A DNA stretch of 64,000 nucleotides from Actinomycetota bacterium (GCA_046046455.1 JBJOJS010000023.1:13167-77166); one strand, 5' to 3'; counted from the first letter of the stretch, positions 366 to 59,631 are shown. Translations and numbers: made by a program. Notes: generated by a model from the sequence alone, not told the origin.

Positions 366-435
366 GTGTCCTCCAAGGGTTTCCCTCGAGGATACGGCTC
401 CCCCTACCCCGGATGCCCGGCCTGACGGGGGCGGC

Positions 436-5106: not shown

Positions 5107-5193
5107 TCCCGCACTATAGAGCGGCGCCCCCGCGTGATGCCTGCGATGCGGCAGCGCAGGGTCATGGCAGCGCAGGGTCATGGCAGCGCAGGG

Positions 5194-6153: not shown

Positions 6154-6166
6154 CCGAAGCACCGCA

Positions 6167-16323: not shown

Positions 16324-19300
16324 ATGCGCTTCGCTTCTCCGGTCATCATCGCCGTCTCGCTGGCACTCACGGTCTCTGCGTGCACGTCCAGCCCGCCCGA
16401 GTCGGCGACCTCGAGTCCGACGCCCAGCGTCGTGGAGCCGACCGACGATGGTGCCATCGCGGCCGCGGGCACGCCCGTCGCCGATGTGCAGCCGTGGCTC
16501 GCGGGTGTTGTCCCCGGTGGCGACGCGAGCGGGCCGGTGAGCCCGACGGACTGGCCGTCGGCCACAGTGAAGGCTGCCGGGACCTCGACGTCTCTCACGC
16601 CCACGCTGGTCGCACCGGGCATCGACGGCGAAATCCGCGTCGAGATCGTGGACCTCAGCGCGGGCGGCGGGTTCGGCGCCGATGGCACCGGGGAGGCCAC
16701 CGAGCTCGTCTGGTCCGGGAGCGGTCGTGGAGCAGGCACCGAGGTGCCCGCCGACACGCTGCGCCAGGGAGCGACCTACGCCTGGCGGGCGTTGCGCAAT
16801 GAGCAGGTCGTCGGCGGGCCGTGGGGATTCGGCGTCGACGTCGTACGCACGGGCAATGCACCGATGGACCAGCTCTACGGCGTAAACGTCAACATGGTGA
16901 GCGGCGTGGTCTCGACACGCTGGGCCAGTCCGTCCTTCACAGGCGCCGCCGGCGGCATCGTCATCGCCCTGGGTTACCGCGCACCCGTGGAGGCGAAGCC
17001 CGTCAGCTTCCCCGGCCTGCCTGCCGGCTGGTCGTGGGACCTCCCGGGTTCAGGCCTCATCGAGGCACGCGAGTCCGAGATCACATCCGGATCGGGCGAT
17101 GACGCGGGGCCGCGAAGCGTCGTCCTGCTCAACGCGCAGGGCATCGGCCAGACCTTCGTCCGGACGGAGACGGGTGCCTACGTGCCCGGGCTCGCCGACG
17201 GTACGGCGACCGGATACGGCTCCGCCGGCACGCTCATCCGCATCGGCGACGGGATCTGGCAGTTCACCGCACCCGACGGCACCCTCACGCGCTTCGAGGG
17301 CGGCCGCACCGTGTCGGAGTGGAACGCCGGCCTGCCGACTGTCGCCTACACGTGGGATGCGGATGGCCGACTGCTGTCGATGGGCGACGGCATCTCCCGC
17401 ACGCTCTCGATGATCTACGCCGGCACCGGCGACTGCCCCGCCGCGAGCTGGGGCAATGGCTTCGATGTCGCCGAGGGCATGTGGTGCGCGACCGTCAATC
17501 CCGATGGGTCGGTCACGGGTGTCGGATACACGGGCGGACAGATTGGCCTGATCGCCGATGCGGGCGGAGTCAGCGCCGGGTTCGGCTGGGATCGTGCCGG
17601 TCGCCTCAGCGCCGTACGCAGCACGAGCGCCGCGGCCGCTGCCGCGACCGCCGGCGGCGCGTGGGCCGGACCTGAGTTCACGACGCAGATCGCCTACGAC
17701 GCCGTCGGCCGCGTGGAGTCCCTCACTGCGCCAGCTCCAGCGCCCGGAGTGGATCGCGTGCAGAGGTCGTACTCCTACCCCGCCGACGCCTCGTCCAGTG
17801 AGCTGACCGCGTCAGCCACGCAGTCCGTCGTCGGCAACGGCGCACCGCGACTGGTCTCCTCCGACCTCGGCTCGGGCCGCGTCCTGGAGATCACGGTCGA
17901 GTCCGAGACCTGGAAGACCCTCAAGCGCCGCGACGTCGACGGTCGCAGCACGACGGTGAAGTACGACGAGGAGTCCGGGGTCGTCCTTCAGGGCACGGAC
18001 GAGACCGGGCGCACCGTCCAGACACTCACGGACAAGGACTCCATCGCCACCGAAGTGGTCGGGCCCTTCGTCGGCTCCGACCAGGGCGCGATGCGCAACG
18101 AGCGATTCCTCGACGCGACGATCGACAACCCTGCCGCGGGCACGGACTCCCCCACCACTCCCTGGTACGGACTCGCGGCCGTGGTGTGGTCCGACGATGC
18201 AGGGACGCCGGCCTACTGGGACCGCGACCTCCTCGGCGACTCGCTGTCAGCTGAACTCAACGTGCCCGGATCGTGGAACGCCGTCGCGACGGGCACCTGG
18301 AAGGTGCCGGAGAGCGGCGTCTGGAAGGTCGAAGCCACGTCCTCCGACGGCGTCGGTATCGACGTAACCCTCGACGGCGTCCGCTGCACCAGCGACGTCG
18401 GCGAGCCCTGCGAGATAAAGCTCTCCAAGGGAGATCACGCGCTCGCGCTCAGCCTCGTCGGTCAGGGTGCCGGATCTTTCGCCGTACGCGCAGGGCGCGG
18501 AGGGGATGCGCCCAAGGCCCTGCCGATCGACGCACTGCGCCCCGGCTACCGTGCGGCGACGCTCATGTCGATCAACGACGTCGTCGACGGTCGCAATGTG
18601 GGCACGCAGGTGATCGAGAACTCCCGGCCCTGGTCCCCCTCCCCGGAGTCGATCCGATCGGCAGGCGACCTCGTCACCCGCTTCACCTACGAGCCCACGG
18701 ATCCCCGGAAGGGGAGCTGGGGCCGACCTCTCGACACGACGACACCGGGCGGGGCGGTCCTCTCCACGTCGTACTACGGCAACGACGAGCAGGTCGAGGA
18801 CCCGTGCACCGGCACTTCCTCCCCGCAGGTCGGCCAGCCCAAGACCCAGGTGCGCTACGACGGCGTACGCGTGACGACGGTCTACAACGCCCAGGGCTAT
18901 CCCGCGTCCGTGACGACGGAGGGCGCAGGCGGCGAAGGCCAGCGCACCTGCGCGACGTACGACCCGGCCGGCCGTCCGCTCACGACGAGCACGAAGACGC
19001 TCGGCGGCGAGGAACTGGCATCCTCGTCGACGGAGCGGGTCTGGCAGGACGGTCAGCTGGTCACCACGGTGACGTCAACGTCACCGCAGGGCACCTTCAC
19101 CACGCGCTCGGTCACCGACATCCTCGATCAGATCGTGTCGTACACCGACGCATGGGGCACGACCACCGACTACACGCTTGATGCCGAGGGGCTCATCGTG
19201 AAGCGCACCACGACGCCCAAGGGTGCGTCCGCGCCAGCCCTCGTGGTCGAGTACGGGTTCGAGAAGGGCAGCGGCTCGCTCTCCACGGTGAGCGCCAACG

Positions 19301-21006
19301 GGGAGGTCCTCGCCGCACTCGACTACGCCGAGACAGGGCTGCTGGACTCGGTGACCTACCCCGGCGGCGTCACCGCGACCTACGCTTACGCCGCCCCGGG
19401 CACGGTGGAGTCGATGGCCCTGAAGACGGCAGACCTGACCTTCAGCCAGGACCGCGAGCGCAATGCCGCAGGTCGCACGCTGGCGAGCACTCTGCGCGTG
19501 CGCAGCGACGGCGATGACGTGCTGCAGTCGCGCTGGGAGTACGGGTTCGATGACGCCGGGCGCCTGACGAAGGCGACGCTCAGCAGCAAGGGCGATGTCG
19601 ACGTCGTGGGCGGTGACAAGCGCACCTTCACCTACTCCTACGGCTCACCCGAGGCGTGCCCGACGACGGCGGGAGCCGACTTCAACCGCACGGGTGGCAG
19701 CCGCGACGGAGTCGACTTCGTCACTTGCTACGACGCGAAGTTCCGCATGGCGTCCACCACGGATCCGCGCCTCGCGGCGAAGGGCAAGGCGGAGGCGACG
19801 TACGACGCACTCGGTCGGCTCACGGCCCTCAGCGGCGACGTCCCCCTCGAGATCACCTGGGGAGCAGGCACGACGCCCCTGGCGATCACGCAGGGCGGTG
19901 CCGTGACGACACTCACCAACAGCGGGCCGAGCCTCATCGAGTACGCCGTGGACGGAGTCGCGACTCGACTGTCCTACGCGTCCGCGGGGCAGGCGCCCGC
20001 CCTCCTCCTCGACGATCAGGGCAAGGTCACCGCCATGCTCGTGGGCCTGCCCGGCGGAGCCCTCGCGCGGCTCGACGCCGCCGGCGCGCTCTCGCAGATC
20101 GACTACACCGACATCTTCAGCGCCGCGCTCACCAGCACGGCACCGGACGGCACCTCGCTCGGCTCCGGGCAGGCGCATCTCGCGACGCGCTTCGGCCCCT
20201 ACGGTGAGCCGCTCGTCTCCTCGGATGCGCTCGCGCCGGCAGCGACCTACGGCTGGCAGGCGGGGCCGCGCAATCCCACGGTCGGCGGGTGGCACGACAT
20301 CACCCTCACGGCGCGTCCCTACCACCCGTGGCTCGGCCAGTTCCTCGCCTTCGACCCGGCGGTCGGAGCGTCGACCACGGGCTACGGCTACGGCGATGGC
20401 AGCCCTGTGGACCGCCCTGACTTCAGCGGCAACTTCCCGATCTTCGAGACGCTGGCCATCGCCGGCGGAATCCTCGCCGGGGTCGCAGGCGTCGGCATGG
20501 GCCAGGTCAAGGTCGGCGCCAGCAAGGCGGGTCGCACTCTCGTCATCGGGGGCGCCGCTGTGGGCGTAGCGGCGGCCGTGACCGGCATCGTCGGCACCTG
20601 GACCACCGAGACCACCGACTCGAGCCAGGGACTCCAGATCGCCTCCACCGTCGTCGCAGGTCTGGGCATCCTCGCGATCGGGGGCGCCGCGGCGGTCCAG
20701 AAGTATCGCGAAGCGCAGTACATGACCAAGCTGCGTGCCTACGCCGACGACGCCATCAAGGCCTCCGAGGTCGCGTACACGAAGGAGTTGCAGAGCCTGC
20801 GACAGCAGCAACTGGCGATGTACGCCCCGGGCCTCACGGCCGAAGAGGGTCTGGAGTTGGTCGCCAAGTACGAGGAGAGCAAGGCAATCCTGGCCGAACT
20901 CATGGGCCGCTACCAGGGTAAGCAGGTCCACATGGACGCCCTGCACAAACAGGACCTCGAGTTCCTGAGCTTCTACAACGGCGAGCGGCCGCGGTGGTTC
21001 AACTGA
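16324..21006 (+). CDS. RHS/YD-repeat lipoprotein (RHS-1) with PA14-like insert and hydrophobic C-terminal tail
   Basis: 1560 aa. Lipobox LTVSAC. Many YD-type repeats (YTWDADGRLLS, YDAVGRVES, YDPAGRPLT, FDDAGRLTKA, YDALGRLTAL). RHS core end reads ARPYHPWLGQFLAFDP...GYGYGDGSPVDRPDFSG. A PA14-like block lies at about 18160-18540. The tail is at 20437-21003. Confidence 0.9.
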   Translation: MRFASPVIIAVSLALTVSACTSSPPESATSSPTPSVVEPTDDGAIAAAGTPVADVQPWLAGVVPGGDASGPVSPTDWPSATVKAAGTSTSLTPTLVAPGIDGEIRVEIVDLSAGGGFGADGTGEATELVWSGSGRGAGTEVPADTLRQGATYAWRALRNEQVVGGPWGFGVDVVRTGNAPMDQLYGVNVNMVSGVVSTRWASPSFTGAAGGIVIALGYRAPVEAKPVSFPGLPAGWSWDLPGSGLIEARESEITSGSGDDAGPRSVVLLNAQGIGQTFVRTETGAYVPGLADGTATGYGSAGTLIRIGDGIWQFTAPDGTLTRFEGGRTVSEWNAGLPTVAYTWDADGRLLSMGDGISRTLSMIYAGTGDCPAASWGNGFDVAEGMWCATVNPDGSVTGVGYTGGQIGLIADAGGVSAGFGWDRAGRLSAVRSTSAAAAAATAGGAWAGPEFTTQIAYDAVGRVESLTAPAPAPGVDRVQRSYSYPADASSSELTASATQSVVGNGAPRLVSSDLGSGRVLEITVESETWKTLKRRDVDGRSTTVKYDEESGVVLQGTDETGRTVQTLTDKDSIATEVVGPFVGSDQGAMRNERFLDATIDNPAAGTDSPTTPWYGLAAVVWSDDAGTPAYWDRDLLGDSLSAELNVPGSWNAVATGTWKVPESGVWKVEATSSDGVGIDVTLDGVRCTSDVGEPCEIKLSKGDHALALSLVGQGAGSFAVRAGRGGDAPKALPIDALRPGYRAATLMSINDVVDGRNVGTQVIENSRPWSPSPESIRSAGDLVTRFTYEPTDPRKGSWGRPLDTTTPGGAVLSTSYYGNDEQVEDPCTGTSSPQVGQPKTQVRYDGVRVTTVYNAQGYPASVTTEGAGGEGQRTCATYDPAGRPLTTSTKTLGGEELASSSTERVWQDGQLVTTVTSTSPQGTFTTRSVTDILDQIVSYTDAWGTTTDYTLDAEGLIVKRTTTPKGASAPALVVEYGFEKGSGSLSTVSANGEVLAALDYAETGLLDSVTYPGGVTATYAYAAPGTVESMALKTADLTFSQDRERNAAGRTLASTLRVRSDGDDVLQSRWEYGFDDAGRLTKATLSSKGDVDVVGGDKRTFTYSYGSPEACPTTAGADFNRTGGSRDGVDFVTCYDAKFRMASTTDPRLAAKGKAEATYDALGRLTALSGDVPLEITWGAGTTPLAITQGGAVTTLTNSGPSLIEYAVDGVATRLSYASAGQAPALLLDDQGKVTAMLVGLPGGALARLDAAGALSQIDYTDIFSAALTSTAPDGTSLGSGQAHLATRFGPYGEPLVSSDALAPAATYGWQAGPRNPTVGGWHDITLTARPYHPWLGQFLAFDPAVGASTTGYGYGDGSPVDRPDFSGNFPIFETLAIAGGILAGVAGVGMGQVKVGASKAGRTLVIGGAAVGVAAAVTGIVGTWTTETTDSSQGLQIASTVVAGLGILAIGGAAAVQKYREAQYMTKLRAYADDAIKASEVAYTKELQSLRQQQLAMYAPGLTAEEGLELVAKYEESKAILAELMGRYQGKQVHMDALHKQDLEFLSFYNGERPRWFN

Positions 21007-21012
21007 CCTGAT

Positions 21013-21050
21013 CCGCACGGCCGATCGGCTACAGGCGATCGGCCGTGCGG
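21013..21050. terminator. 15-bp stem hairpin between the convergent RHS-1 and RHS-2 genes
   Basis: CCGCACGGCCGATCG (21013-21027) pairs perfectly with CGATCGGCCGTGCGG (21036-21050) around an 8-nt loop. The RHS-2 stop codon (21029-21031) lies in the loop. There is no clear U-tract. Confidence 0.5.
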
Positions 21051-24000
21051 TGGTCGCCCTCGCGCGAGGGCATGCCCTCGCAGCCACCCTCGACGGGGCA
21101 GTCCTGCGGATCCGCGGCTCCCGCCTCGCCCTGCTCGGCCTCCGCGGCCTGCTGCGGCTGCTGACCGCCGCCGAGCAGGAGCTGGAAGCCGGCCACGGTG
21201 AGCGAGGCCTGCGTGATCGTCTTCAGCAGCGTGGGCTTCTCGTTCGCCACCTGCGATGAGGCGCGGATGGCGCTGTCGGCGAGCTCATCGGCGCTGTCGA
21301 TCACGGAGGATGTCGCCTTCGACGCCTCCTTCCACGCCTTGTATCTCCCGGCACCCCAGGTCGCCATGTCGATGCCGACGGAGATCGCCTCGAAGACGAG
21401 ATCCGTCGTCGTCAACTCCTCGAAGCCGCCTCGCTCCCACGCGGTCACCGAGAGCTGCGCCGCGCTCGTCGTCAGGGAGATCGCCAGCACGATGGCGAAG
21501 GATCCGGGCAGCATGATCGACGCGGTGATGCTCGCCACGGCGAGCACATTGCGCGCGAAGTCGAACCACGAGTAGGCGCCGGTGGGGTCCGAGTAGTTGA
21601 CCGGATCGGCCTCGGCGAAGCCGTAGCCGGTCGAGGAGGATCCCGGGACAGGGTCGAAGGCGAGATAGGCGCCGAGCGCGGGCAGATAGGGCCGCGCGAG
21701 GGACAGCACGAGGCCGGAGCCGCCGGAGAGTGTGGGCTCCAGGCGCGAGAATCCGTAGCCGTAGGAGGGCGGATCGGCTGCGAGCGCGCCTGCGGACGGC
21801 CGGCCCGTCTCCAATGGTTCGCCGAACGGGCCGAGGGCCTCGGCGAGGACTCCTCCGCCGGCGCCCCGCACGGCCTGGCCACGGGCATCGGTGCGCACCA
21901 CGACCTCGCCGCGGATGCCCGGGTGATCGAGGACGACATCGCCACTTGCCAGGGACTTCTTCCACAGCGCGCCACCGGGCAGCAGCAGGCGCACCTGCGT
22001 GGGACTGCCCTGCCCATCGAGCAGCAGTCCCGGGGCGATGGCGGTCGGATTGGCATAGGCCATGAGGGTGGTGGTCGAGGCCGAGTCATCCGACGTGCGT
22101 TGTGCGACCAGGCGGCCGAGCGCATGCGCGAGGTCGGAGGTGACCGGCACGGCACCCATGCCGTCGACGATCGTGGCGGGCAGGCCGCCCCAACTCCAGT
22201 CCAGGCTGAGCGTGGCTCCCTCGGCCTCGCTCGACGTCAGCCGGCCGAGCGCATCCCAGGAGAGCCGGGCCGAGCCGCCCTGCGGGGCCATGAGCGGATC
22301 CGTCGTCGATACGGCGCGCCCCGCACCGTCGTAGCAGGTCACGTAGTCGCGATCGTCGCGTCGCCCGCTCGTGCGATCGAGGTCGATACCGGGATCCCCC
22401 GACGTGCCGCACGAGGCGTCCTGTGGGCCGAAGCGGTAGTCGAAGCGCCGCCGATCGGCGCCCACGCCCGCCTGGTCGCCCTCGACGTCGAGGATCGCGG
22501 TCGACAGGCGCGCCGCCTTGTCGTAGGCGTAGCCCCATTCGCGCTTCGTGCTCGCCTCGCCCGCGCGCACGACCCGCGTGGTGCGGGTGGAGATGCGGCC
22601 GGCGTCGTTGGTGCCGGTCGCATCGGTGACGAGCGAGCCGTCTGCCAGGGTGATCGCCGTCGACTGCACCGTGCCGTTGGGGCGGTACTCGAACTCCTGG
22701 GAGACGGCGGAGGCGTATTCCACGCTCGCGACTCGCCCGGCACCGTCGTACCGGACTCGGGCGATCTCCCTCCCGTCGATTGACATGCGCGTGGGCCGAC
22801 CCGTATCCGCGTCGAACTCCTGGCTCGATGTCACGAGTTCCTTGCCGTCGACCGAGGTGGTGCGGCTGATCTGATTGCCCTGGACGTCATACCGATAGTC
22901 GAAGACCGCTCCGGTGAGGTCGCGATAGGTGACCAAGCGGCCCAGGAGATCGACGGTCGTCTCGGTGACCGCCTGCGCGGGGAATATCTCGCCGGGGGGA
23001 GTGGTCGTCACCTGCGTGCGCGTGCGGCGCGGGTCGCCCTCGACCCCAGCGCTGACGATCGCCTCCTCCACGAGATCGCCCTTGACGCCGTAGAGACGTG
23101 ACGACGTGACACTGCCATCGCTCGCGAACGTCCAGCAGGCGAGTTCGCCCGCCTGGCCGCCGGTGCGGATGGCGATCGTGCGGCCGGCGGCATCGAACCA
23201 TCGCTCGACCACGACCCCGTCGGTGCGGGTGATGGAGCGCACCTGGCCCGCCTGCGGCGCGGCTGCGGCATCCGGGCAGGGCGGTGACTCACTGGCGCCC
23301 GTGACCGGCCAGTACGCCGTTGTCGTGACCCGACCGCCCGGCGTGGTCGCGGTGAGCTTGCGACCCCAGCCGCCCTGGCCGACCGGCTCGTAGGTCGCGC
23401 GCGAGACGCGACCCCCGGGCGACTCCACCTGCGTGGGGCGCCCGGTCCAGGGCTCGTCGTACGTCGTGTAGGTGTCGAAGGCGGAGCCCTCGGCGAATCG
23501 GTCGTTGGTCAGCGTCGCCGTCTGGACCCCGAATCCCGGCGTGACCGATGACATGACTTCGAGCTTTGACGGCAGCCTGCCGCCTCCGTCCACCTCGGCG
23601 CCCACGCGCAGGCTCGACTCGGCGGTGCTGGAGGACATATCGATGCGCAGAGCATGCTCGCCGTCGCGCAGATCGAATCGGCAGATGCCATCGGAGTCCG
23701 CCTCGCAGGGTCGGTTGTCGACGTACACCGTGACGTCTGCCTCATCCGCGGCTCGCACCTGCAGAGCCCACGTCGTCGCTTTGCCGTCCCCGGCGCCGGT
23801 ATCCGTGCGCCAGGTCCCCGCGAAGCGGCCCGACCACGAGCCCTGGCCCACCGGACTCGCAGCCCAGTCGACCTCCACGCGCCCATCGCGCGCGATCCAG
23901 CCCCCGGCGGCAAGGGGACCTGTCGCTCCCGGCGACGCCCAGTAGTCGGCGGCCAGTCCCTCGTACGCCTCGCCATCGCGCATCTGGTCGACCTGCGTGG

Positions 24001-25771
24001 TCTGCGAGAACGCGGCATCACCCACGGTCGAAGGCCCGGTGAAGCCACTGCGCCGCCCTTCGCCGTACGTGTATCGGGTGACGCGACCCTCGTAGTCGGT
24101 GATCGACTCGACCCGCCGGCCAGACTTGTCCCAGGCCATGGATGTCGTCGCTCCGTCGCGATCACGGCGCGTGAGCGGACGCCAGTCGGCTGCACTCACG
24201 GTCATCTCGAAGAGCCGCCCTTGGCCGATCGATGACTGCAGCGGCTGGACCCCGGCACCATAGGAAAAGTCGCCCGCGAGGGATCCTGCGATGACGGCTG
24301 CACTCACCGGGGTCGCATCGAGGGACGCCTGCTGCGAGATCAACGGGTACTCGTAGAGGTGCACGAGCCGCTCCGCACCGGGAGCGGGTGCCCCCTCGGC
24401 CACACCCCACACTCGACCCGAGGGGTCGTAGGCAACCTGCGTGAGCACGTCGGTGGCCGCGCGATCGACGGTGCCCGAGGCGACAGCCGCGTTGGCCATC
24501 GGCTGGCGCACGGCCGCGAGGCGCCCGGAGGCATCCCACCCGATTCCCAGTCCGATCTCGCTCATCGGTCCGGGGCCGCCGACGGCATCGGCGATGAGCC
24601 CGATCTGCGGTGTGCCAGCGGCATCGACGTAGTGGATCTGCGTCGACGTGCCGTCCCACCAGGTGACCTGGCACAGCATCGCTTCCGGCGCAGCAACGAA
24701 TCCCGATGCGACAGGGCAGTCCGCGCCGTAGGCGAAGTCGATCGTGCGCTCGCTCGGATCGGTCACCGTGCGGGGCAGACCCTCACCCGTCCACTGGACT
24801 CGGCCGGCGAGGAGCCCCGAGGGGTACGACGCGACCGGTCGATCACCCTGGAACTCGGTGATGTCGCCATTGGTCTCCGTGAGCTGCCAGATGTCGCCTT
24901 CCCGCACCAGGGTTCCGGACGTCGCCGCGTCCATCCGGCGGCCGTTGGACCAGGTCTGCGTGTAGACGCCTACGTCGTTGCGGGTGAAGGTCATCGATCG
25001 TCCGGTGACATCGGCGACGTAGACCGAGGTCGGCACTCCATCGCGCACCGACTCCGACGGCTCGAATGTCGTCCACCGCGATGCGAGCGGCACGCTCATC
25101 CGCCATCCCGCCGGCATGCCGGCGCTTGAGGTCTGGCCGGGCTGGTAGGTGAGGAGGGCGAATGCCTGCCCGGCGACCGTCGGGTAGGAGCGCGAGGTCC
25201 AGGTGAGGGTCGGCACGCCGGTGATGAGGTGCGTCGTCACGCCGCCGAGCGCATCGCGGGGAGCGAGGCCGGGACGCGTCGCGTCGATGTTGAGCGAGAA
25301 GGGTCCCGCCCAGTCCCCGGAGGGGGCGTTGGCATTGCGTGCACGCCAGGAGTACTGCCGACCATCCTCGAGGGTGCCCGGGGGCACCTGCCATTCACGG
25401 CGCGAGCCCCCCGACGCCAGTGGCTCGTCGACGCCCGGCTCGTCGCCGGCCGAGACGTCGTAGATCTCGAAGGTCACATCCTCGGCCTCGACCTGCGCAG
25501 GGGCGACGAGCGTGGGCGTCACGGACACGGCGAGGCCGGAGGCATCGAGAGCCGACGGCGGGAAGGCCTCCGGAAGGGCCGGACCCGAGCCCGCCGAAGG
25601 GGGCAGCGCCCCCGCCTCAACCGCAGGTCGCAGCCCCGCTGCTGCCGGAGCGCCCGCGTCGGCAGACTGCGATGCGGACTCGACCGGGGCAGGAGTCGGC
25701 GGTGTCGAGGTGCACCCCGCCAGCACAGCGAGCGCGCTCGCCAGCGCGACGAACCCCGAAGCGCGCCTCAC
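21029..25771 (-). CDS. RHS/YD-repeat lipoprotein (RHS-2) with PA14-like insert and hydrophobic C-terminal tail
   Basis: GTG 25769-25771 gives VRRASGFVALASALAVLAGCTS (lipobox). YD repeats include YDPSGRVWG, FDAAGRTIA, YDGAGRVASV, YDKAARLSTA and WDALGRLTS. Core end reads ARPYLPALGAYLAFDP...ADPVNYSDPTGAY. The tail is at 21032-21577. The start overlaps the upstream gene's stop (GTGA). Confidence 0.9.
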   Translation of the reverse strand: MRRASGFVALASALAVLAGCTSTPPTPAPVESASQSADAGAPAAAGLRPAVEAGALPPSAGSGPALPEAFPPSALDASGLAVSVTPTLVAPAQVEAEDVTFEIYDVSAGDEPGVDEPLASGGSRREWQVPPGTLEDGRQYSWRARNANAPSGDWAGPFSLNIDATRPGLAPRDALGGVTTHLITGVPTLTWTSRSYPTVAGQAFALLTYQPGQTSSAGMPAGWRMSVPLASRWTTFEPSESVRDGVPTSVYVADVTGRSMTFTRNDVGVYTQTWSNGRRMDAATSGTLVREGDIWQLTETNGDITEFQGDRPVASYPSGLLAGRVQWTGEGLPRTVTDPSERTIDFAYGADCPVASGFVAAPEAMLCQVTWWDGTSTQIHYVDAAGTPQIGLIADAVGGPGPMSEIGLGIGWDASGRLAAVRQPMANAAVASGTVDRAATDVLTQVAYDPSGRVWGVAEGAPAPGAERLVHLYEYPLISQQASLDATPVSAAVIAGSLAGDFSYGAGVQPLQSSIGQGRLFEMTVSAADWRPLTRRDRDGATTSMAWDKSGRRVESITDYEGRVTRYTYGEGRRSGFTGPSTVGDAAFSQTTQVDQMRDGEAYEGLAADYWASPGATGPLAAGGWIARDGRVEVDWAASPVGQGSWSGRFAGTWRTDTGAGDGKATTWALQVRAADEADVTVYVDNRPCEADSDGICRFDLRDGEHALRIDMSSSTAESSLRVGAEVDGGGRLPSKLEVMSSVTPGFGVQTATLTNDRFAEGSAFDTYTTYDEPWTGRPTQVESPGGRVSRATYEPVGQGGWGRKLTATTPGGRVTTTAYWPVTGASESPPCPDAAAAPQAGQVRSITRTDGVVVERWFDAAGRTIAIRTGGQAGELACWTFASDGSVTSSRLYGVKGDLVEEAIVSAGVEGDPRRTRTQVTTTPPGEIFPAQAVTETTVDLLGRLVTYRDLTGAVFDYRYDVQGNQISRTTSVDGKELVTSSQEFDADTGRPTRMSIDGREIARVRYDGAGRVASVEYASAVSQEFEYRPNGTVQSTAITLADGSLVTDATGTNDAGRISTRTTRVVRAGEASTKREWGYAYDKAARLSTAILDVEGDQAGVGADRRRFDYRFGPQDASCGTSGDPGIDLDRTSGRRDDRDYVTCYDGAGRAVSTTDPLMAPQGGSARLSWDALGRLTSSEAEGATLSLDWSWGGLPATIVDGMGAVPVTSDLAHALGRLVAQRTSDDSASTTTLMAYANPTAIAPGLLLDGQGSPTQVRLLLPGGALWKKSLASGDVVLDHPGIRGEVVVRTDARGQAVRGAGGGVLAEALGPFGEPLETGRPSAGALAADPPSYGYGFSRLEPTLSGGSGLVLSLARPYLPALGAYLAFDPVPGSSSTGYGFAEADPVNYSDPTGAYSWFDFARNVLAVASITASIMLPGSFAIVLAISLTTSAAQLSVTAWERGGFEELTTTDLVFEAISVGIDMATWGAGRYKAWKEASKATSSVIDSADELADSAIRASSQVANEKPTLLKTITQASLTVAGFQLLLGGGQQPQQAAEAEQGEAGAADPQDCPVEGGCEGMPSREGDHRTADRL

Positions 25772-27198
25772 TTGTTGGTGATCGTCGCGAGCCAGGAGGC
25801 TCCAAACGCGTAGGAGGAGCCAGCGCTCCCGCCCGTGGAGGCGCACTCGATCGAAAGCTGGGACTGGGCCAGCGAGGACGCGTCGCTCTGACAGGAGATC
25901 AGCGCCTGCTCGACCTGCTTGCCGTTCTCGTTCACCTTCTTGATGGACGGCCTGCCGCCATTACCGCGGACGCCGTCGAGTTCCAAGGACGCAGCGATGC
26001 GCAGGGTGACGTTCTTGTCGAGGAACTCACGGGACGCCGCCGGCATCCTCGTGGTGAAGGTCAGGCTCGCATCGGGCCAGCAGGCATTCTCCGCAGAGGT
26101 GGCACCCTTGCGGCAGGCGTAGACCTCACCCGTCGATGACGTGATGTTGATCGGCTCGAGCTTCAATTGCAGCGTGGTCTTCGCGTTCCTCGCGAGAGCG
26201 TAGGCACCCACCGTGATGACGTTTCCGTCACCGGGCCCCACCACCTGGCCCACGGGCGACTTGCGCTGCGCCCACTGCGCCCCCTGAGTGAGGCTCGCAT
26301 CCACGATGCGCCAGGCGAGGAAGAGCTTTTCGTTCTTGAAATCCCCCCCGGGATTCTTGGCCGGATCCTGCTTGTACACCTTCACCGTGGCGTCCTTGCC
26401 CACTACCCCAGTCCACGTGGTCTTGATATCGACCCGCATCGGTGCCGTCCAGGCATAGGTGTCGTAGACGAAGTCCCACTTGTATCCGCTGTTGTACGTG
26501 TCCGTCCAGCAGCCCACCACGGAAGAGTTCCGCACCTCGCAGCTCGGGTATGTCTTCACGTCCTTGGTGTCGTTGTCGCGGGTGTCCCATGGCGCCTTGA
26601 TTTCCGCCGACGCGAGGGCGGAATCGATGCAGCCGCGATCCTTGGTGAAGGTGGACACACTGCCATCCTGGCTGCGGTCGACATTGGTGCACTTCCACCA
26701 CACGTAGCCGTTGGGGTCGCGCGCCCAGTCACGATCCTCCTGATGTCCCCACCAGCCGGGGTGATCGCTCCAGACCTTGCCGTCCCAGTAGTAGTACGTC
26801 TGCAGGTTCGACACGCCCATCGGCGGCCGGGCGCACTCCCACTCGCCTTCCTCATCGTCAAAGTTCCACGCCTTCTCACCCGTCTGCATCAGCCAGACGA
26901 CGTCGGTGTTGGACGGATCGACATCGGTACGGGCGCGGAAATCGTTGCGGAGCCAGACGACATCGAGGTTGTTGTAGATGCGCGCATTGGCCGTGACGTC
27001 ATCTCGCGAGCGGCACTTGGACTTCGGGTGCTGCTCTCCCGCCACCTCGCCCTCCCCGGCCGACTCCACCGGCGCCGGGCTCGAAGCCGGTGCGGCGTCC
27101 GAGGAGGAGGTACCTGATGTCGACGTGCCTGATGTGCAGGCGGCAAGCGCGAGCGCCCCCGCCACAGCGACTACCACCGCGTGCATCTTCCTGGCCAT
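25768..27198 (-). CDS. Trp/Cys-rich lipoprotein of unknown function, translationally coupled to RHS-2
   Basis: MARKMHAVVVAVAGALALAACTS (lipobox). 476 aa with Trp-rich stretches (YYYWDGKVWSDHPGWWGHQEDRDWARDPNGYVWWKC) and about 11 mature-chain Cys. I recognise no family motif. GC is lower than the neighbours by eye (about 58-63% on two sampled 60-nt lines). Confidence 0.75.
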   Translation of the reverse strand: MARKMHAVVVAVAGALALAACTSGTSTSGTSSSDAAPASSPAPVESAGEGEVAGEQHPKSKCRSRDDVTANARIYNNLDVVWLRNDFRARTDVDPSNTDVVWLMQTGEKAWNFDDEEGEWECARPPMGVSNLQTYYYWDGKVWSDHPGWWGHQEDRDWARDPNGYVWWKCTNVDRSQDGSVSTFTKDRGCIDSALASAEIKAPWDTRDNDTKDVKTYPSCEVRNSSVVGCWTDTYNSGYKWDFVYDTYAWTAPMRVDIKTTWTGVVGKDATVKVYKQDPAKNPGGDFKNEKLFLAWRIVDASLTQGAQWAQRKSPVGQVVGPGDGNVITVGAYALARNAKTTLQLKLEPINITSSTGEVYACRKGATSAENACWPDASLTFTTRMPAASREFLDKNVTLRIAASLELDGVRGNGGRPSIKKVNENGKQVEQALISCQSDASSLAQSQLSIECASTGGSAGSSYAFGASWLATITNK

Positions 27199-27297
27199 GC
27201 TCCGAGCGTACGTCGCACGAGGCGGGAGTGCGGGGTGATGTTCGGGTTTCTCACACGTGCCGGGCCCGGGCTACGTTCCCCGGGATACCTTCGCGCT
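27199..27297. promoter_or_regulatory. divergent promoter region between the lipoprotein/RHS-2 operon and RHS-3
   Basis: 99-nt gap between divergent starts. It contains GTTCGGGTTTCTCACACGTG (27240-27259) 38 nt before the RHS-3 ATG. This is similar to 16267-16286, which lies 37 nt before the RHS-1 ATG. Confidence 0.35.
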
Positions 27298-30200
27298 ATG
27301 CGCACTCGCCAGCGACTGTTCGCCGCTGTCGCCGTCACGGCGAGCCTTGCCATGGTGGCCACCGGCTGCACCACCTCCACTGAGCCGTCGCCGACGCCCT
27401 CCGCCGCACCCGTGGAGACCGCTGAGACGTCCGGGGGAGTCGCCGCGTCGTCGATCAACGCGGCGGACGTCCAGCCCTGGGTCGCGGGGACGGTCCCGGG
27501 TGGCGATGCCACCGGGCCGACGTACCCGACCGAATGGCCCGACGCCCCCGTGATCGGAGGCGGGCAGACGACATCGCGCACGCCCACGCTCATCGTCCCC
27601 GACGATGCACGGCTCTCCGGCGATGTGCAGGTGCAGATCGTCGACCTCGGCATCGGCGGTGGCTTCGGCCTCGACGGCCGCGGAGAGGCGACCGGTATCG
27701 CCTTCGAGGGGCGCCGCAGCACACGAGGCTTCACCGTCCCCGCAGACACCCTGGTCGACGGGGGCACCTACGCCTGGCGTGCCGGCAGCCCCGACGACTG
27801 GGCGGGACCGTGGGTCTTCACGATCGACACCGTCCGCTCGCAGAACGCTCCGGTCGACTCGGTGGGCAACATCAACGTCAATCTCATGTCGGGAGTGCCG
27901 GCCGCGCGATGGACGAGTCCCGAAGTGTCCGGGGCGCTCGGCGCCTTCGGCATCGGCGTGATCTTCCGACCCGGCAGCCCCGCGACTCCAGGACTCCCCG
28001 AGGGCTGGAACTGGGTGCTCCCCGGGAGCGGGTTCATCAGCCTGCAGGAGTCCGAGGTGATGTTCGGCGATGCGGCCGACGTATCGCTCTTCGGTGGTGA
28101 TGCCGGCCCCCTCAGCGTGACCCTGCGCACCACCAACGGCGCCGGCCTGACCTTCGTGCGCACGGAGACCGGCGGCTACGTCCCGGGCCTGTCGGACGGC
28201 ACCGCGACGGCGTACTCGCGCGGTGGTGTGCTCACGCGGATGAGCCCGAACACATGGCAGTTGTCCACTCCCGACGGCTCCATGACGCGATTCGTGGACG
28301 GCCGCGCCGTGAGCGAGTGGTCACGCGGCAACCCGGTCGCCAACTTCACCTGGGACGAGCAGGACCGCCTCGTCAGCGTCAGTGACGGCACCTCCCGCAC
28401 GACGACACTCGCCTACGCGGGCGGGTCATGCCCGGCGGTGGACTGGGGCAACGGCTTCGATGTCGCCGACGGCATGTGGTGCTCGGCGACGTACGCCGAC
28501 GGCACCGTCACCGGCATCGGCTACGTCGGCGGCCGGATCGGGCTGATCGCCGACCCCGGCGGATTGGGCACGGGCTTCGGCTGGGACGGCGCCGGTCGCC
28601 TCGCCGCTGTGCGCTCTCCGGGTGCCACCGCAGCGGCAGCCACCGCGGGAAATGACTGGGCCGGGGCGGACCTCACCACTTCTGTCGCGTACGACGGTGT
28701 CGGTCGTGTCGCGTCCCTGACGTCCGCGGCGACAGCACCCGGAGGCGAGCGGCTGACACGCACCTACACCTACCCGACGGGCGCACCGCGCGACGGCGAG
28801 CTGAAGGCGGCGGTCATGCAGGAGGGTGGTCCCTCCGCGGGGACCGTCCTTCAGGTCACCGCGACAGCCGACCGCTGGCAGGTAACCGAACGGGTGGAAG
28901 CAGGTCGGCTGACGACCACCACCGACTACGACACGGCAGGGGTCGTCACGCGGGGCACCGACCCGCAGGGTCGCACCCTCACGACGAAACTCGACGACGA
29001 GGCGCTCATGCGCACGTCGACAGGGCCGTACACCGGCTCCCCTGACGGCGCGCTCCGGACCGATCGCACGCTGGACGCCACAGCGACGAATCCCGAGGCC
29101 GGCGCCACCTCACCGACCGAGCAGTGGCACGGCCTCTCCGCGATGGTGTGGTCCGGTGATGAGGGCCGGGCCGAGTGGTGGGACGAGCGCACCCTCGAGG
29201 AGCGCGGTGTGGGCGGAGTCGTCGGCACCGAAGGCGAGTGGGAGGCCCAGGCATCCGGACTCTGGAAGGTGCCCGAGTCGGGCGTCTGGACGATCGAGGC
29301 GACGGCCTCCGACGACCTGCGCATCGAGGTGCTCGTCGACGGCGTTCGGTGCCCGGAGGGCGACGGCTGCGAGATACGCCTGGACCAGGGCGAGCACAAC
29401 CTCGCCATCGCCCTGCGCGGCAAGGGGAGGGGATCGTTCAGCGTCAAGGCGGATCGGGGCGGTGAACCCACGCGCATCCCCATCACGCAGGTGCGGCCGA
29501 ACTTCAACACGGCGACGGTCGTATCACTCAACGACAACGTCGAGGGTCGCAATGTCGGCTCGCAGGTCTACGACTTCGCTCGGCCCTGGACCCAGGCACC
29601 CGAGAGCGTCACCGCAAGCGGCGGCCTGCGCACGGCGTTCACGTACGAGCCGGAGTCGCCCGCGTCCGATCAGTGGGGCCGTCAGACGGGCACGCGCACC
29701 GCCGGCGGCGCCACCATGGCGACGGCGTACTACGGCGCCGACGAGCAGGCGAGCGGTGCCTGCGGCGGTGGCGGCGTACAGGGAGGACTCGCGCGCCAAA
29801 TGACCCGCTACGACGGGGTCACCATCACTTTGGTCTACGACGGTGCGGGCCGTGTCCAGTCGATGGTCACGTCCGGGGACGGTGCTTCCGAGACGACCTG
29901 CCTCGCCTACGACGCTGCCGGACGGACGGTGTCGACGAGCATCGCCGACAAGACCGGCGCCACGCTGCGCTCCTCGATGTACACCTACACCTGGTCCGAC
30001 GGCCGGCTCACGACGCAGCTCACCTCCACCGTCGCGGGTGAGTCCTTCACGACATCGACGACCTACGACATCGCCGGCAGGGTGCTGGAGTTCGTGGACG
30101 CATGGGGCGCGAAGACGTCATACGACTATGACGTCGAGGGCAACAACACCAAGCGCACAACGACAGCCCCCGGTGGCTCGTCACCCATCCTGACCGTGGA

Positions 30201-31818
30201 CCTCGCACATGATGGCGCGACCGGCAACGTGACGAGGATCGACGCCAATGGCACGACGCTTGCCAAGGTGACCTACAGCGAAGGCGGACAGCCCCGGAGC
30301 GTGGACTACCCCGGCTCGGTGTCCCAGTCCTTCGACTACACCTCGGCCGGGGCCATCAGCGTCACGCAACTCACGACCAAGGACACGGTCTTCATCCAGC
30401 GCCGCGAGCGCAATAGCGCCGGTCGCACTCTCTCGTCATCCACGACGGTGGAGCAGGGGTCGAAGACCGTCACAGATGCCACATGGGGCTACGACTACGA
30501 CAGTGCGGGACGCCTCATCGATGCCAAGCTCGTCACTCGCGGCGATGCCAGCACCATGGGCGGGGAGAAGCGGACATTCGGCTACGGGTACGGCTCTCAG
30601 GAGCAGTGCCCGTCCAGCACCGGTAACGACTTCAACCGCACGGGCGGCTCGCGCGACGGCATCGACTACGTGACGTGCTACGACGGTCGCGGTCGCCTTG
30701 CCTGGACGACGGACCCCCACCTGGTCGGCGAAGACGGGAAGGCGAAGGCGACCTGGGATGGCCTGGGCCGTCTCGTCGGCCTCGATGGAGCCGTGCCCCT
30801 CGCGCTCACCTGGGAGGCGGGGACGCAGGCGTCCGGCGTCACGCAGGGAGATGTCGCGAGCACCATGCTCTCGGTAGGCGGGGTCATGATCCGCGAGGAC
30901 GTGGGCGGGGTCATCCGCACCCTCGGCTACTCCGGCCCGGACGCCCGGCTCCCCTCCCTCGTCATGGATGACGCCCAGAAGGTGACGGGGATGCTCGTCG
31001 GCCTGCCGGGCGGGGCCATCGCGCACCTCGATCCAGCCGGTGCGCTCGAACGCATCGATCATCCCGACCTCTTCCTCGGCGTACTCGCCTCGACGGACGC
31101 GAACGGCGCCGCGCCCGGGCTCGCGGCGCAGTACGGGCCTTACGGCGAGCCGCTCGTGCCGGCGACCACTGCCTCGATGGAGTACGGCTGGCAGGCGACT
31201 CCGCGCAATCCGACGCTGTCGGGATTCCACGACCTGACGTTCACGGCTCGGCCCTACCACCCGTGGCTCGGCGCCTTCCTCGCCTTCGACCCGGATGTGG
31301 GTGTCTCGCCCAGCGGCTACGGCTACGGCGACGGCAACCCGCTGGACAACCCCGATCCCTCGGGCATGTCGGGAGCCCTCGACATCGTCGCCCTCGTCTT
31401 CGGGATCGTGGCGACGATCAGCGGCGCTGCATCGGGCGTCGTCGCGAGGAGCTCGAATGGCGAATTCTGGGAGACGGAGTTGAAGATCATCATGGTCGGC
31501 TCCGCGACCATCAGCGGGGCCCTCGCGATCGCCCGCCAGATCCCGGCCTTCCGGGAGCAGGCTCCGCAGGACGGTGTGACGGTCGCCAGCGCGGTCTTCG
31601 CCGTACTCGGAGTCGTCGCTGCATCGGTGGGCAGTTATCGCTACTCCGGCCAGGTGGAGGTCGGCATCAAGGCACGTCAGGCTATCGAGGAAGCCCTGGA
31701 GAGATCCACCTACTCCGCTGCGAAGGATCTCGCCGAGGACTCGCTGGATGCGGGCAAGAAGGCCGTCCGGGACGACGAGTACAACCGAGTCAAGAACTTC
31801 CTGGAGAACTTCGACTAG
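27298..31818 (+). CDS. RHS/YD-repeat lipoprotein (RHS-3) with PA14-like insert and hydrophobic C-terminal tail
   Basis: ATG 27298 gives MRTRQRLFAAVAVTASLAMVATGCTT (lipobox). It aligns along its whole length with RHS-1 (for example DVQPWVAGTVPGGDATGP, WKVPESGVWTIEATASDD). Core end reads ARPYHPWLGAFLAFDP...GDGNPLDNPDPSG. The tail is at 31366-31815. Confidence 0.9.
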   Translation: MRTRQRLFAAVAVTASLAMVATGCTTSTEPSPTPSAAPVETAETSGGVAASSINAADVQPWVAGTVPGGDATGPTYPTEWPDAPVIGGGQTTSRTPTLIVPDDARLSGDVQVQIVDLGIGGGFGLDGRGEATGIAFEGRRSTRGFTVPADTLVDGGTYAWRAGSPDDWAGPWVFTIDTVRSQNAPVDSVGNINVNLMSGVPAARWTSPEVSGALGAFGIGVIFRPGSPATPGLPEGWNWVLPGSGFISLQESEVMFGDAADVSLFGGDAGPLSVTLRTTNGAGLTFVRTETGGYVPGLSDGTATAYSRGGVLTRMSPNTWQLSTPDGSMTRFVDGRAVSEWSRGNPVANFTWDEQDRLVSVSDGTSRTTTLAYAGGSCPAVDWGNGFDVADGMWCSATYADGTVTGIGYVGGRIGLIADPGGLGTGFGWDGAGRLAAVRSPGATAAAATAGNDWAGADLTTSVAYDGVGRVASLTSAATAPGGERLTRTYTYPTGAPRDGELKAAVMQEGGPSAGTVLQVTATADRWQVTERVEAGRLTTTTDYDTAGVVTRGTDPQGRTLTTKLDDEALMRTSTGPYTGSPDGALRTDRTLDATATNPEAGATSPTEQWHGLSAMVWSGDEGRAEWWDERTLEERGVGGVVGTEGEWEAQASGLWKVPESGVWTIEATASDDLRIEVLVDGVRCPEGDGCEIRLDQGEHNLAIALRGKGRGSFSVKADRGGEPTRIPITQVRPNFNTATVVSLNDNVEGRNVGSQVYDFARPWTQAPESVTASGGLRTAFTYEPESPASDQWGRQTGTRTAGGATMATAYYGADEQASGACGGGGVQGGLARQMTRYDGVTITLVYDGAGRVQSMVTSGDGASETTCLAYDAAGRTVSTSIADKTGATLRSSMYTYTWSDGRLTTQLTSTVAGESFTTSTTYDIAGRVLEFVDAWGAKTSYDYDVEGNNTKRTTTAPGGSSPILTVDLAHDGATGNVTRIDANGTTLAKVTYSEGGQPRSVDYPGSVSQSFDYTSAGAISVTQLTTKDTVFIQRRERNSAGRTLSSSTTVEQGSKTVTDATWGYDYDSAGRLIDAKLVTRGDASTMGGEKRTFGYGYGSQEQCPSSTGNDFNRTGGSRDGIDYVTCYDGRGRLAWTTDPHLVGEDGKAKATWDGLGRLVGLDGAVPLALTWEAGTQASGVTQGDVASTMLSVGGVMIREDVGGVIRTLGYSGPDARLPSLVMDDAQKVTGMLVGLPGGAIAHLDPAGALERIDHPDLFLGVLASTDANGAAPGLAAQYGPYGEPLVPATTASMEYGWQATPRNPTLSGFHDLTFTARPYHPWLGAFLAFDPDVGVSPSGYGYGDGNPLDNPDPSGMSGALDIVALVFGIVATISGAASGVVARSSNGEFWETELKIIMVGSATISGALAIARQIPAFREQAPQDGVTVASAVFAVLGVVAASVGSYRYSGQVEVGIKARQAIEEALERSTYSAAKDLAEDSLDAGKKAVRDDEYNRVKNFLENFD

Positions 31819-38681: not shown

Positions 38682-39968
<1,287 letters not shown>

Positions 39969-59630: not shown

Positions 59631-59631
59631 C

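Follow-up and report, generated by a model that had tools for sequence, protein, structure and literature searches.

Almost all Rhs toxins and bacterial teneurin-like proteins (TLPs) possess an immunity gene. Tse5 from Pseudomonas aeruginosa is delivered by the T6SS and has the cognate immunity protein Tsi5, WapA from Bacillus subtilis is wall-anchored, carries a tRNase and has an immunity protein of its own, and at the Rhs cleavage site Leu usually follows the DxxG motif. Inside its YD shell, past a protease site with the aspartyl dyad D1141/D1164, Tse5 holds a hydrophobic cargo with predicted TM segments, Tse5-CT (PMC10684867). TLPs are defined by an FN-plug, an NHL propeller, a YD shell and usually a TIP domain; their CTDs are highly polymorphic, with an immunity gene after nearly all of them, and the hydrophobic BiTLP-CTD is membrane-damaging and toxic only if exported (Raoelijaona et al. 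2026, PMC13018210). Myxococcota TLPs are predicted Sec/SPII lipoproteins, and the Gram-positive ones have SPI signals and wall-binding domains without a lipobox (PMC13018210). In mosquito SGS1 (PDB 8fjp), the YD shell bears mid-shell beta-sandwich carbohydrate-binding modules and an aspartyl-protease site. Behind that site come about 230 aa that are predicted as multi-pass TM helices but lie buried in the shell, and then another C-terminal domain; SGS1 has no immunity partner (PMC9935623).

The three genes compared here with these systems, RHS-1, RHS-2 and RHS-3 (R1–R3), lie in a 64,000-nucleotide stretch of DNA (the window) from an uncultured freshwater actinobacterium, at a chromosomal locus amid housekeeping genes that adjoins a histidine kinase/response regulator (HK/RR) pair (Table 1). 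The open reading frames and strands proposed by the first-pass annotation were recovered with sensible starts (ATG at 27298 for R3; GTG at 25771 for R2, overlapping the TGA of the upstream gene as GTGA), and because GC3 is 0.86–0.88 across R1–R3 they are counted as real genes. As annotated, they are full-length paralogs with a common layout of lipobox, YD repeats, mid-protein insert, Rhs core and divergent tail, R3 being 47% identical to R1 over its full length and R2 33% (E 2e-157). Similarity among the three ends shortly past the core motif ARPY.P.LG.[FY]LAFDP, which is found in each, and at the DNA level R1 and R3 are most alike in the core. The proposed N-terminal motif DVQPW[LV]AG.VPGGDA.GP holds for R1 and R3 but is degenerate in R2.

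Table 1 Positions of the three Rhs genes, their parts and the accessory gene in the window
Feature	Position	Strand	Properties and evidence
RHS-1 (R1, clade C)	16324-21006	+	1560 aa, monocistronic; ORF, homologs, GC3 0.88
R1 signal peptide with lipobox MRFASPVIIAVSLALTVSAC, Cys20	16324-16383	+	PROSITE-type lipobox rule; Cys20 invariant in family alignment
R1 PA14-fold insert, residues 600-745	18121-18558	+	AF2, Foldseek, block HMM; conserved Cys688/Cys696 pair
R1 Rhs core/C-terminal plug, ends PDFSG	20191-20430	+	TIGR03696 match, residues 1292-1369; invariant D1344, D1366
R1 tail, glycine-zipper three-helix module, residues 1370-1458	20431-20697	+	Hydrophobic segments, loop charges, conservation
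R1 tail, charged C-terminal domain, ~100 aa, helical-looking	20698-21003	+	Fastest-evolving part of R1
RHS-2 (R2, clade A)	21029-25771	-	1580 aa
R2 lipobox	25712-25771	-	
R2 PA14 block	~23537-23980	-	
R2 core	21578-21718	-	
R2 tail	21032-21577	-	
Accessory Cys/Trp-rich lipoprotein	25768-27198	-	476 aa; GTGA overlap with R2
RHS-3 (R3, clade B)	27298-31818	+	1506 aa
R3 lipobox	27298-27369	+	
R3 PA14 block	~29119-29503	+	
R3 core	31132-31365	+	
R3 tail	31366-31815	+	

The lipobox noted in all three proteins was recovered with a PS51257-type rule (K/R in the n-region, a hydrophobic core and [LVI..][AST..][GAS]C at residues 15–35), as VSAC at C20 in R1, LAGC at C20 in R2 and ATGC at C24 in R3. The rule also selects 29 of the 34 family members, the other five being truncated gene calls, and the lipobox Cys is invariant in the family alignment. 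From these motifs we infer lipidation of R1–R3 via Sec/SPase II, and because four Cys pairs are invariant across the family an extracytoplasmic location is suggested. Secretion genes are absent, as had been remarked: a Pfam scan of 57 ORFs across the window matched no T6SS or T7SS family, and neither R1–R3 nor the 57 ORFs gave a PAAR/VgrG-linked or DUF6531/LXG-type N-terminus. WapA and actinobacterial PA14-Rhs proteins are comparable in this respect, as monoderm Rhs proteins that are Sec-dependent or independent of a secretion system. Bacterial TLPs such as BiTLP (PDB 9ifo) are likewise Sec-exported surface YD shells, with at most four copies per genome, and in view of the Myxococcota lipoproteins among them it goes too far to call a lipoprotein signal unprecedented for YD-shell toxins (PMC13018210). 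A lipid anchor under the cell wall would be awkwardly placed for launching contact-dependent delivery, which speaks against a cocoon toxin.

Profile searches for the annotated YD repeats and core gave a graded result. The NCBIfam YD-repeat model TIGR01643 was passed by R1, R2 and R3 (34.7, 54.6 and 47.3 bits; cut-off 15.8) and Pfam RHS_repeat by R2 and R3, with R1 at 21.8 against a cut-off of 22, but the core model TIGR03696 only by R3 (32.6 against 32.5; R1 25.8, R2 26.5). The AF2 model of the R1 shell (residues 170–1369, with the tail outside the model; pLDDT 88.5, pTM 0.84) bears out the expected YD shell, and the PA14 insert is placed mid-shell. Foldseek returned Tse5 as best match (E 5e-38), followed by RhsA, Tse15, a bacterial TLP, teneurins, TcB-TcC and SGS1; every one of the best 48 matches is an Rhs, teneurin, Tc or SGS1 shell, and the R1 shell is thus predicted to be a spiral beta-sheet Rhs cocoon. 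TLP 9ifo ranked tenth, below the T6SS Rhs shells, and NHL and FN families, which belong to the TLP definition, gave no match in R1–R3 at E<=0.1. Like R1, Tse5 (PDB 8cp6) has a shell of some 1,100 aa that is plugged at its N- and C-terminal ends, and inside it, as is proposed for R1, a hydrophobic, membrane-acting C-terminal fragment of about 150 aa of glycine-zipper type (PMC10684867). D1344 and D1366 of R1, invariant in alignments of 29 and 37 sequences and 22 residues apart, form a putative aspartyl-protease dyad, the Tse5 pair having a spacing of about 22–23 residues. Tse5 differs from R1–R3 in lacking a signal peptide, a lipobox and a PA14 insert, at 15% sequence identity, and the trio differs from Tse5 in its predicted Sec/SPase II export signal and in having neither a T6SS nearby nor an immunity gene. 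SGS1 differs in being eukaryotic, with 3364 aa, two beta-propellers and no lipobox. Across the R1–R3 family the residue after DxxG varies and Leu is not kept, which counts against a cocoon toxin.

The mid-shell block annotated as PA14-like was located at the expected positions in the genes. Modelled alone, R1 residues 585–760 gave a pLDDT of 92.1, and the best 40 Foldseek matches were all PA14 domains with probability 1.0, among them MpIBP (2.4e-5), anthrax PA, Epa1A, Flo5A and RsgI, so that the predicted structure confirms a PA14 beta-barrel fold. Pfam PA14 (PF07691) matched none of R1–R3 at E<=0.1, and the profile link is transitive only: an HMM of the insert block matches P0034 (4e-12), itself a Pfam PA14 protein at 3.5e-4, as well as the PA14 positions of P0036 and P0042-44. 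The Asp-cis-Asp calcium/sugar site is not conserved at the aligned position, which we take from Flo5 to be the DcisD site; here the family reads SDG, SDD, ADE, STG, SEG, SPG and the like. That this canonical site is not kept is a further observation at odds with a cocoon toxin.

Each tail (140–240 aa across the family) combines a conserved glycine-zipper module of three helices, with an invariant GxxxAxxxGxxxG in helix 1, and a fast-evolving end. The module is as well conserved as the shell. In close pairs, identities of shell, helix module and end are 91/84/82, 88/79/50 and 80/93/80%; the charged C-terminal domain of R1, which matched no Pfam family, is 50% identical to that of P0002 where the shells share 88%. 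The R2 tail is homologous to the tails of P0030-32 and of the relative L001 (16079-20806). Loop 1 contains K/R and, apart from a single E in one member, no D/E; loop 2 contains D/E and no K/R, and K/R return after helix 3. This agrees with the positive-inside rule for an N-out/C-in topology in many divergent members and fits a reading in which the helices are a true anchor in the producer's membrane: R1–R3 would be surface receptors or adhesins of teneurin type, with a PA14 ligand module, rather than toxin containers, held by the N-terminal lipid and three TM helices, with the last 60–140 residues in the cytoplasm. The weak Pfam matches of the tails, all to integral-membrane families, the integration by Sec expected of such segments, the vertical inheritance of the tails, which in clade A are better conserved than the shell, the missing immunity genes and the syntenic chromosomal setting with its housekeeping neighbours and HK/RR pair all agree with such an anchor. 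The chain, however, would have to stay unbroken, and for this the invariance of both protease aspartates is odd; to our knowledge, teneurins, whose C-terminus exits the shell, have lost them. Moreover, an Rhs-shell chain beyond the plug points into the cavity, and the helices, Gly/Ala-rich and of no more than marginal hydrophobicity (summed Hessa scale -1.6 to +4.2 kcal/mol), resemble the cargo of Tse5 and SGS1. The tail profile gives weak leads, at E 0.17 to SmhB, a pore-forming toxin, and at E 0.67 to SGS1, whose non-significant match spans cleavage site and helices (E 0.34–0.67). The anchor is a tentative alternative, and somewhat doubtful. As regards a cocoon toxin, three moderately hydrophobic helices passing through SecYEG could integrate into the producer's own membrane, which is an objection to it.

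The first-pass annotation also proposed an expanding polymorphic family, i.e. classical Rhs toxins directed at close relatives, with immunity encoded nearby. An Rhs cocoon, an intact protease dyad and paralog-specific tails would suit such toxins, and so do the distant Microbacterium/Nocardia PA14-Rhs proteins (P0046/P0054/P0056). These are the nearest sequence outgroup (25–27% identity over about 75% of R1) and have a Pfam PA14 domain at the R1-equivalent position, but differ from the trio in length (2100–2500 aa), in an extra N-terminal PA14/CBM96/DNRLRE region, in lacking a lipobox and in their diverse tails; at Microbacterium P0046, the sole locus examined, a 121-aa gene in a toxin island lies directly downstream. 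The trio itself behaves otherwise. R1, R2 and R3 belong to the separate old clades C, A and B (NJ tree), and the best DNA repeat between paralogs is 173 nt at 79% identity. Trio and accessory gene are syntenic in the distant relative L001 (S8/HK/RR ... purB-purD), where the proteins are only 44–58% identical. No near-identical shells with unrelated tails were found, and wherever two members are close, the similarity of their tails follows that of their shells, which indicates tails inherited vertically and co-diverging with their shells. No immunity-sized gene follows R1–R3, or their homologs in L001, the P0025 contig and L083, and there is no intergenic room for one: R1 and R2 converge with 22 bp between their stops, and 6 bp separate the stops of R3 and purB. 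For all its resemblance to known membrane toxins packaged in shells, the trio has neither the variable toxin tips nor the immunity genes by which such systems are defined. Local expansion of polymorphic toxins is already largely refuted and highly improbable, and the family is best read as non-polymorphic, immunity-less and restricted to lake Actinomycetota. The same two features, a missing immunity gene and non-polymorphic tails, also weigh against a cocoon toxin.

The co-transcribed accessory lipoprotein has only seven homologs, contains 10 invariant Cys and gave no Pfam or PDB match; it is 29% identical to the product of an L001 gene that likewise precedes a clade-A RHS. It occurs together with one member each of several clades in three genomes or more. 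This, and its translational coupling to R2, would be expected if it formed one envelope complex with the three cocoons, either a Tc-like multi-component device or a structural surface layer, with each paralog as a distinct subunit. Such a complex is improbable: evidence of interaction and a TcA-like component are both missing, and singleton homologs exist (L083).

The reading we prefer, which stands at roughly even chances of being correct, is that R1–R3 are lipid-anchored cocoons packaging membrane-inserting helices, as in Tse5, BiTLP and SGS1, in a non-polymorphic and immunity-less form. After Sec export and lipoprotein processing, the proteins would remain tethered to the cytoplasmic membrane on its outer side. 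The plug probably cleaves itself after the D-x-x-G motif, leaving in the shell a fragment of 150–190 aa made up of the three-helix module and the short, fast-evolving hydrophilic end, and the cocoon would shield the hydrophobic helices through export and storage. Upon a trigger, either ligand binding or release of the anchor, the helices may exit the shell, insert N-out/C-in and permeabilise the membrane or take the C-terminal end across. Self-cleavage, encapsulation, membrane insertion and target are inferred in this scheme. The target is probably not close kin, because the cargo is vertical, an immunity gene is missing and the module is a conserved chromosomal one.

A domesticated Rhs module of abundant lake Actinomycetota, in which three anciently diverged lipoprotein cocoons and a dedicated Cys-rich lipoprotein constitute a conserved envelope device with a glycine-zipper cargo not directed at kin, is rather unlikely. 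If it were true, the cargo might act on grazers, or on phage-infected or foreign cells, with no need of immunity, or might serve as a regulated channel or signalling element in the membrane of the producer itself. The trio would then be a bacterial parallel to the YD-shell toxins that were repurposed as teneurins and SGS1.

The window is chromosomal DNA with a G+C content of 66–71%, and the three ORFs named in the first-pass annotation, RHS-1, RHS-2 and RHS-3, are all present where it had placed them. Their third-codon G+C (GC3) of 0.86–0.88 is typical of real genes in the window. RHS-1 shares 47% identity with RHS-3 over the whole length and 33% with RHS-2 (E 2e-157); in both comparisons the similarity stops a few residues past ARPY.P.LG.[FY]LAFDP...D-x-x-G, the end of the Rhs core. 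Each N-terminus opens with a short, basic n-region, followed by a hydrophobic core and then the lipobox, VSAC in RHS-1 (Cys20), LAGC in RHS-2 (Cys20) and ATGC in RHS-3 (Cys24). A PROSITE-type lipobox rule holds for the three proteins and, in the family overall, for 29 of 34 members, the other five being gene calls that begin within the mature protein. The public calls for the homologs P0014, P0024, P0029, P0031 and P0028 start from an internal Met or Val at or past the PVESA motif (e.g. 'MPVESAS...'). As such starts drop both signal peptide and lipobox, automatic surveys would under-count lipoprotein RHS proteins. Tat export was considered and rejected, the twin-arginine consensus being absent from all three signal peptides. 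The N-terminal motif DVQPW.AG.VPGGDA.GP, earlier ascribed to all three paralogs, holds for RHS-1 and RHS-3 only and is degenerate in RHS-2.

Positions of the RHS genes and of other features in the window
Feature	Coordinates	Strand	Remark
RHS-1 ORF	16324-21006	+	clade C
RHS-2 ORF	21029-25771	-	clade A
RHS-3 ORF	27298-31818	+	clade B
Accessory lipoprotein gene	25768-27198	-	476 aa, Cys/Trp-rich
345-aa lipoprotein gene	14086-15123		carries [AT]P[VI]E[ST]A
GDSL lipase gene	15125-16225		carries [AT]P[VI]E[ST]A
[AT]P[VI]E[ST]A	15048, 16153, 25687, 27072	-
[AT]P[VI]E[ST]A	27409	+
[AT]P[VI]E[ST]A, degenerate	~16430	+	in RHS-1
Histidine kinase/response regulator pair	7146-9673
Lipoprotein-rich stretch	9670-36068
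Epimerase/dehydratase, longest ORF	5194-6426	-	overlaps purC by about 260 nt
purC	6167-7051	-
Trypsin-family serine protease gene	58116-59630	+	about 500 aa
Trypsin-family serine protease gene	59587-61089	+	about 500 aa, with FN3
High-GC3 ORF	268-3306	+	Pfam none/weak
High-GC3 ORF	4390-5181	-	Pfam none/weak
High-GC3 ORF	38061-38759	+	Pfam none/weak
High-GC3 ORF	45437-46135	-	Pfam none/weak
High-GC3 ORF	47712-49370	-	Pfam none/weak

Curated profiles are barely sensitive enough to establish the Rhs identity of these proteins. The YD-repeat model TIGR01643 passes in all three, Pfam RHS_repeat in RHS-2 and RHS-3 (RHS-1 scores 21.8 against a cut-off of 22), and the Rhs core model in RHS-3 only, by a margin of 0.1 bit. 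Neither PA14, NHL, FN nor any toxin family gave a Pfam match in the three proteins, and a whole-protein profile search against PDB sequences returned YD-repeat matches only. It is structure prediction that settles the assignment to a predicted Rhs cocoon. The RHS-1 model, built for residues 170–1369 from a 37-sequence alignment, is nearly all beta-hairpin (mean pLDDT 88.5, pTM 0.84). Its best Foldseek match among solved structures is the T6SS Rhs effector Tse5 (5e-38), followed by a Salmonella bongori Rhs core, RhsA, Tse15 and RhsP; lower matches include a bacterial teneurin-like protein (TLP), teneurins, TcB-TcC and mosquito SGS1. Invariant in the 29-sequence family alignment are four cysteine pairs, R1331-P-Y1333, D1344, D1366 and G1369. 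D1344 and D1366 are 22 residues apart and, judging from this spacing, form the putative counterpart of the Rhs self-cleavage catalytic pair, which is D1141/D1164 in Tse5 (PMC10684867).

The PA14-like block proposed by the first-pass annotation is borne out at the level of the fold by three results. Distant homologs of 1900–2300 aa bear Pfam PA14, and an HMM of the RHS-1 block (residues 600–745) matches them at the PA14 positions (for example residues 584–728 of the homolog P0034, 4e-12). Modelled alone, the block reached a pLDDT of 92.1, and its best 40 Foldseek matches were exclusively PA14 domains, among them those of a Marinomonas adhesin, anthrax protective antigen, Epa1, Flo5 and RsgI. 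The position that we take to be the Asp-cis-Asp calcium/sugar site of Flo and Epa lectins is variable across the RHS family.

The RHS genes are flanked on one side by purC, a response regulator, a histidine kinase, an S8 subtilase (itself a lipoprotein) and several exported enzymes, and on the other by purB, purD, a Big_1 lipoprotein and purA. In agreement with the earlier reading of the neighbourhood, a Pfam scan of 57 ORFs across the 64 kb of the window, with alternative frames counted at some loci, revealed no T6SS or T7SS component. The S8 subtilase was considered as a mycosin-like T7SS component and rejected, as it is a lipoprotein beside a two-component system and Ecc genes are absent. 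The convergent stop codons of RHS-1 and RHS-2 are separated by 22 bp, and those of RHS-3 and purB by 6 bp, which leaves no space for a downstream immunity gene. A terminator/promoter scan of the RHS-1/RHS-2 junction found nothing. In related loci, same-strand ORFs further downstream were also sought automatically; since GC3 is high in the antisense frames of high-GC DNA too, the output was noisy and was relied on only where gene calls agree.

The stretch that holds the RHS genes is dense in predicted lipoproteins (S8 subtilase, BBE/FAD oxidase, the 345-aa protein, GDSL lipase, RHS-1 to RHS-3, the accessory protein and Big_1) and adjoins the histidine kinase/response regulator pair; the BBE/FAD oxidase signal combines a Tat-like RRxFLG with a lipobox. 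Elsewhere in the window, the two adjoining trypsin-family genes look like tandem paralogs. Among the sizeable high-GC3 ORFs, a 1012-aa protein matches Big_7 only. The Pfam domain of the epimerase/dehydratase begins only at residue 95, so its true start probably lies further downstream.

Two protein searches yielded 32 clusters of full-length relatives (33–85% identity), all metagenomic and one labelled Candidatus Nanopelagicales. A single-protein scan of GTDB genomes with RHS-1 gave no match; scanning GTDB species representatives with the family alignment gave about 30 loci, all in lake metagenome-assembled genomes and mostly present in several, often adjoining, copies per genome. The window purA is at most 79% identical to that of any GTDB representative genome, and thus the window organism is not among them. 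On L001, a related 48-kb contig, the order is Big_1, purD, purB, RHS, RHS, a 424-aa gene, RHS, S8, histidine kinase and response regulator. The flanks of the cluster are those found in the window; on L001 the S8, histidine kinase and response regulator genes directly abut it. A neighbour-joining tree resolves four old clades, of which A, B and C are each represented once in the window, and A, B and D once each on L001. The longest DNA repeat among the paralogs, located in the core region, is 173 nt at 79% identity, and recent duplication or gene conversion was rejected on this ground. Taken with the old clades and the synteny of L001, this contradicts the earlier description of an expanding family; RHS-1 to RHS-3 and the accessory gene are an old, maintained gene set and not a local expansion. 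Outgroup PA14-Rhs proteins from Microbacterium and Nocardia differ from the lipoprotein clade in having no lipobox and unrelated tails. At the one such locus examined, that of Microbacterium P0046, a 121-aa gene directly follows the Rhs gene inside a toxin island, in contrast to the housekeeping setting of the lipoprotein clade. This conflict island (Microbacterium sp. PRF11, JAUZUP010000002.1, 3821-16907) contains Xre/RES, YbaB, an EspC-like small protein, a GH-E toxin with SUFU immunity and the 121-aa gene.

The accessory gene lies upstream of RHS-2, its TGA overlapping the RHS-2 GTG start, so that the two genes are translationally coupled. The protein has 10 invariant cysteines and only seven detectable homologs, and the family is kept upstream of clade-A RHS genes. 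The 424-aa protein of L001, likewise directly upstream of an RHS-2-type gene, is 29% identical to it. Another contig combines three RHS genes with two genes likened to it by size (455 and 443 aa, no Pfam match). Neither Pfam nor PDB contained a relative of the accessory protein, its profile showing only lipoprotein-signal similarity to LpqE and Cgl2664. Possible roles for the accessory protein are those of a partner, a chaperone or an atypical immunity factor. The motif [AT]P[VI]E[ST]A, 4–25 residues past the lipobox Cys and often followed by x(2-4)-GEVA, is common to five different lipoproteins: RHS-2, RHS-3, the accessory protein, the 345-aa lipoprotein and the GDSL lipase. The entire RHS family has it as its consensus, the L001 accessory protein carries it too, and it is absent from the S8, BBE oxidase and Big_1 lipoproteins. 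A possible role of the motif is as a lineage-specific signal for sorting or release.

Past D-x-x-G, the tails measure 140–240 residues. In clades B, C and D, up to three hydrophobic segments rich in Gly/Ala stand at their start, and the first of these has an invariant GxxxAxxxGxxxG. Loop 1 carries K/R and almost no D/E (one E in one member), loop 2 D/E and zero K/R, and K/R recur C-terminal to helix 3. The helices are marginally hydrophobic (Hessa sums -1.6 to +4.2 kcal/mol), and the remaining 50–150 aa are hydrophilic and clade-specific. Isolated tails and the N-terminal domain gave nothing significant in Pfam, and the tail profile returned only non-significant leads among PDB sequences (SmhB 0.17, SGS1 0.67). 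In every pair the nearest shell relative is also the nearest tail relative; the tails are hence not swapped, and the family is not polymorphic as first described. The helix module is conserved at least as well as the shell, and the terminal stretch evolves fastest and is still alignable (shell/helix-module/end identities of 88/79/50%, 66/78/39% and 80/93/80% in example pairs).

Tse5 encapsulates a pore-forming C-terminal fragment in its shell (PMC10684867), and the SGS1 shell, which has carbohydrate-binding inserts mid-shell, encloses about 230 aa of predicted TM helices (PMC9935623). The hydrophobic C-terminal domain of a Bacillus TLP permeabilises cells only if exported (PMC13018210). By the precedent of these three solved systems, hydrophobic predicted-TM segments right after the Rhs protease site can be shell cargo. 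Alternatively, the tail helices could be a true C-terminal anchor in the producer, resulting in a doubly tethered, teneurin-like surface protein. This main rival accommodates the loop charge pattern, the vertical inheritance of the tails, the lack of an immunity gene and export through Sec equally well or better. Still, it is judged unlikely in view of the conserved protease residues and the glycine-rich, marginally hydrophobic helices. A lipid-anchored cocoon that would package membrane-inserting helices is favoured, since an invariant Asp pair, a tail of cargo size and a glycine zipper match the stored-cargo pattern of Tse5, SGS1 and the Bacillus TLP; by this analogy, we give the packaging role of RHS-1 to RHS-3 about an even chance.

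Myxococcota TLPs provide a precedent for a Sec/SPII signal on a YD-shell toxin (PMC13018210), and hydrophobic cargo in a YD shell likewise has precedent. The distinctive features here are that an Rhs cocoon of a monoderm actinobacterium carries a lipobox, that a predicted PA14 fold is inserted within the shell, that the putative cargo is non-polymorphic and lacks an immunity gene, and that several paralogs share a conserved locus with an accessory lipoprotein of their own, so far only in uncultured lake Actinomycetota. RHS-1 to RHS-3 lack the defining features of polymorphic toxin systems, T6SS/T7SS effectors and TLPs; they do have the predicted Rhs cocoon and PA14 folds and the lipobox.

The current understanding of Rhs/YD cocoons is that they carry exchangeable toxins and come together with immunity genes and delivery machinery. 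In the lipoprotein RHS clade, the cocoon, the putative self-cleavage residues and a cargo that looks membrane-active are retained, and polymorphism, immunity and a dedicated secretion system have been lost. The clade forms a fixed chromosomal module of several paralogs in Actinomycetota from fresh water that are uncultured and in part assigned to Candidatus Nanopelagicales. Should the cargo be a toxin, the clade would show a way for a monoderm to deploy a shell-packaged membrane toxin by Sec export and lipoprotein processing while sparing itself. Otherwise, it would exemplify in bacteria the shift from toxin to surface receptor that has been proposed for teneurins.
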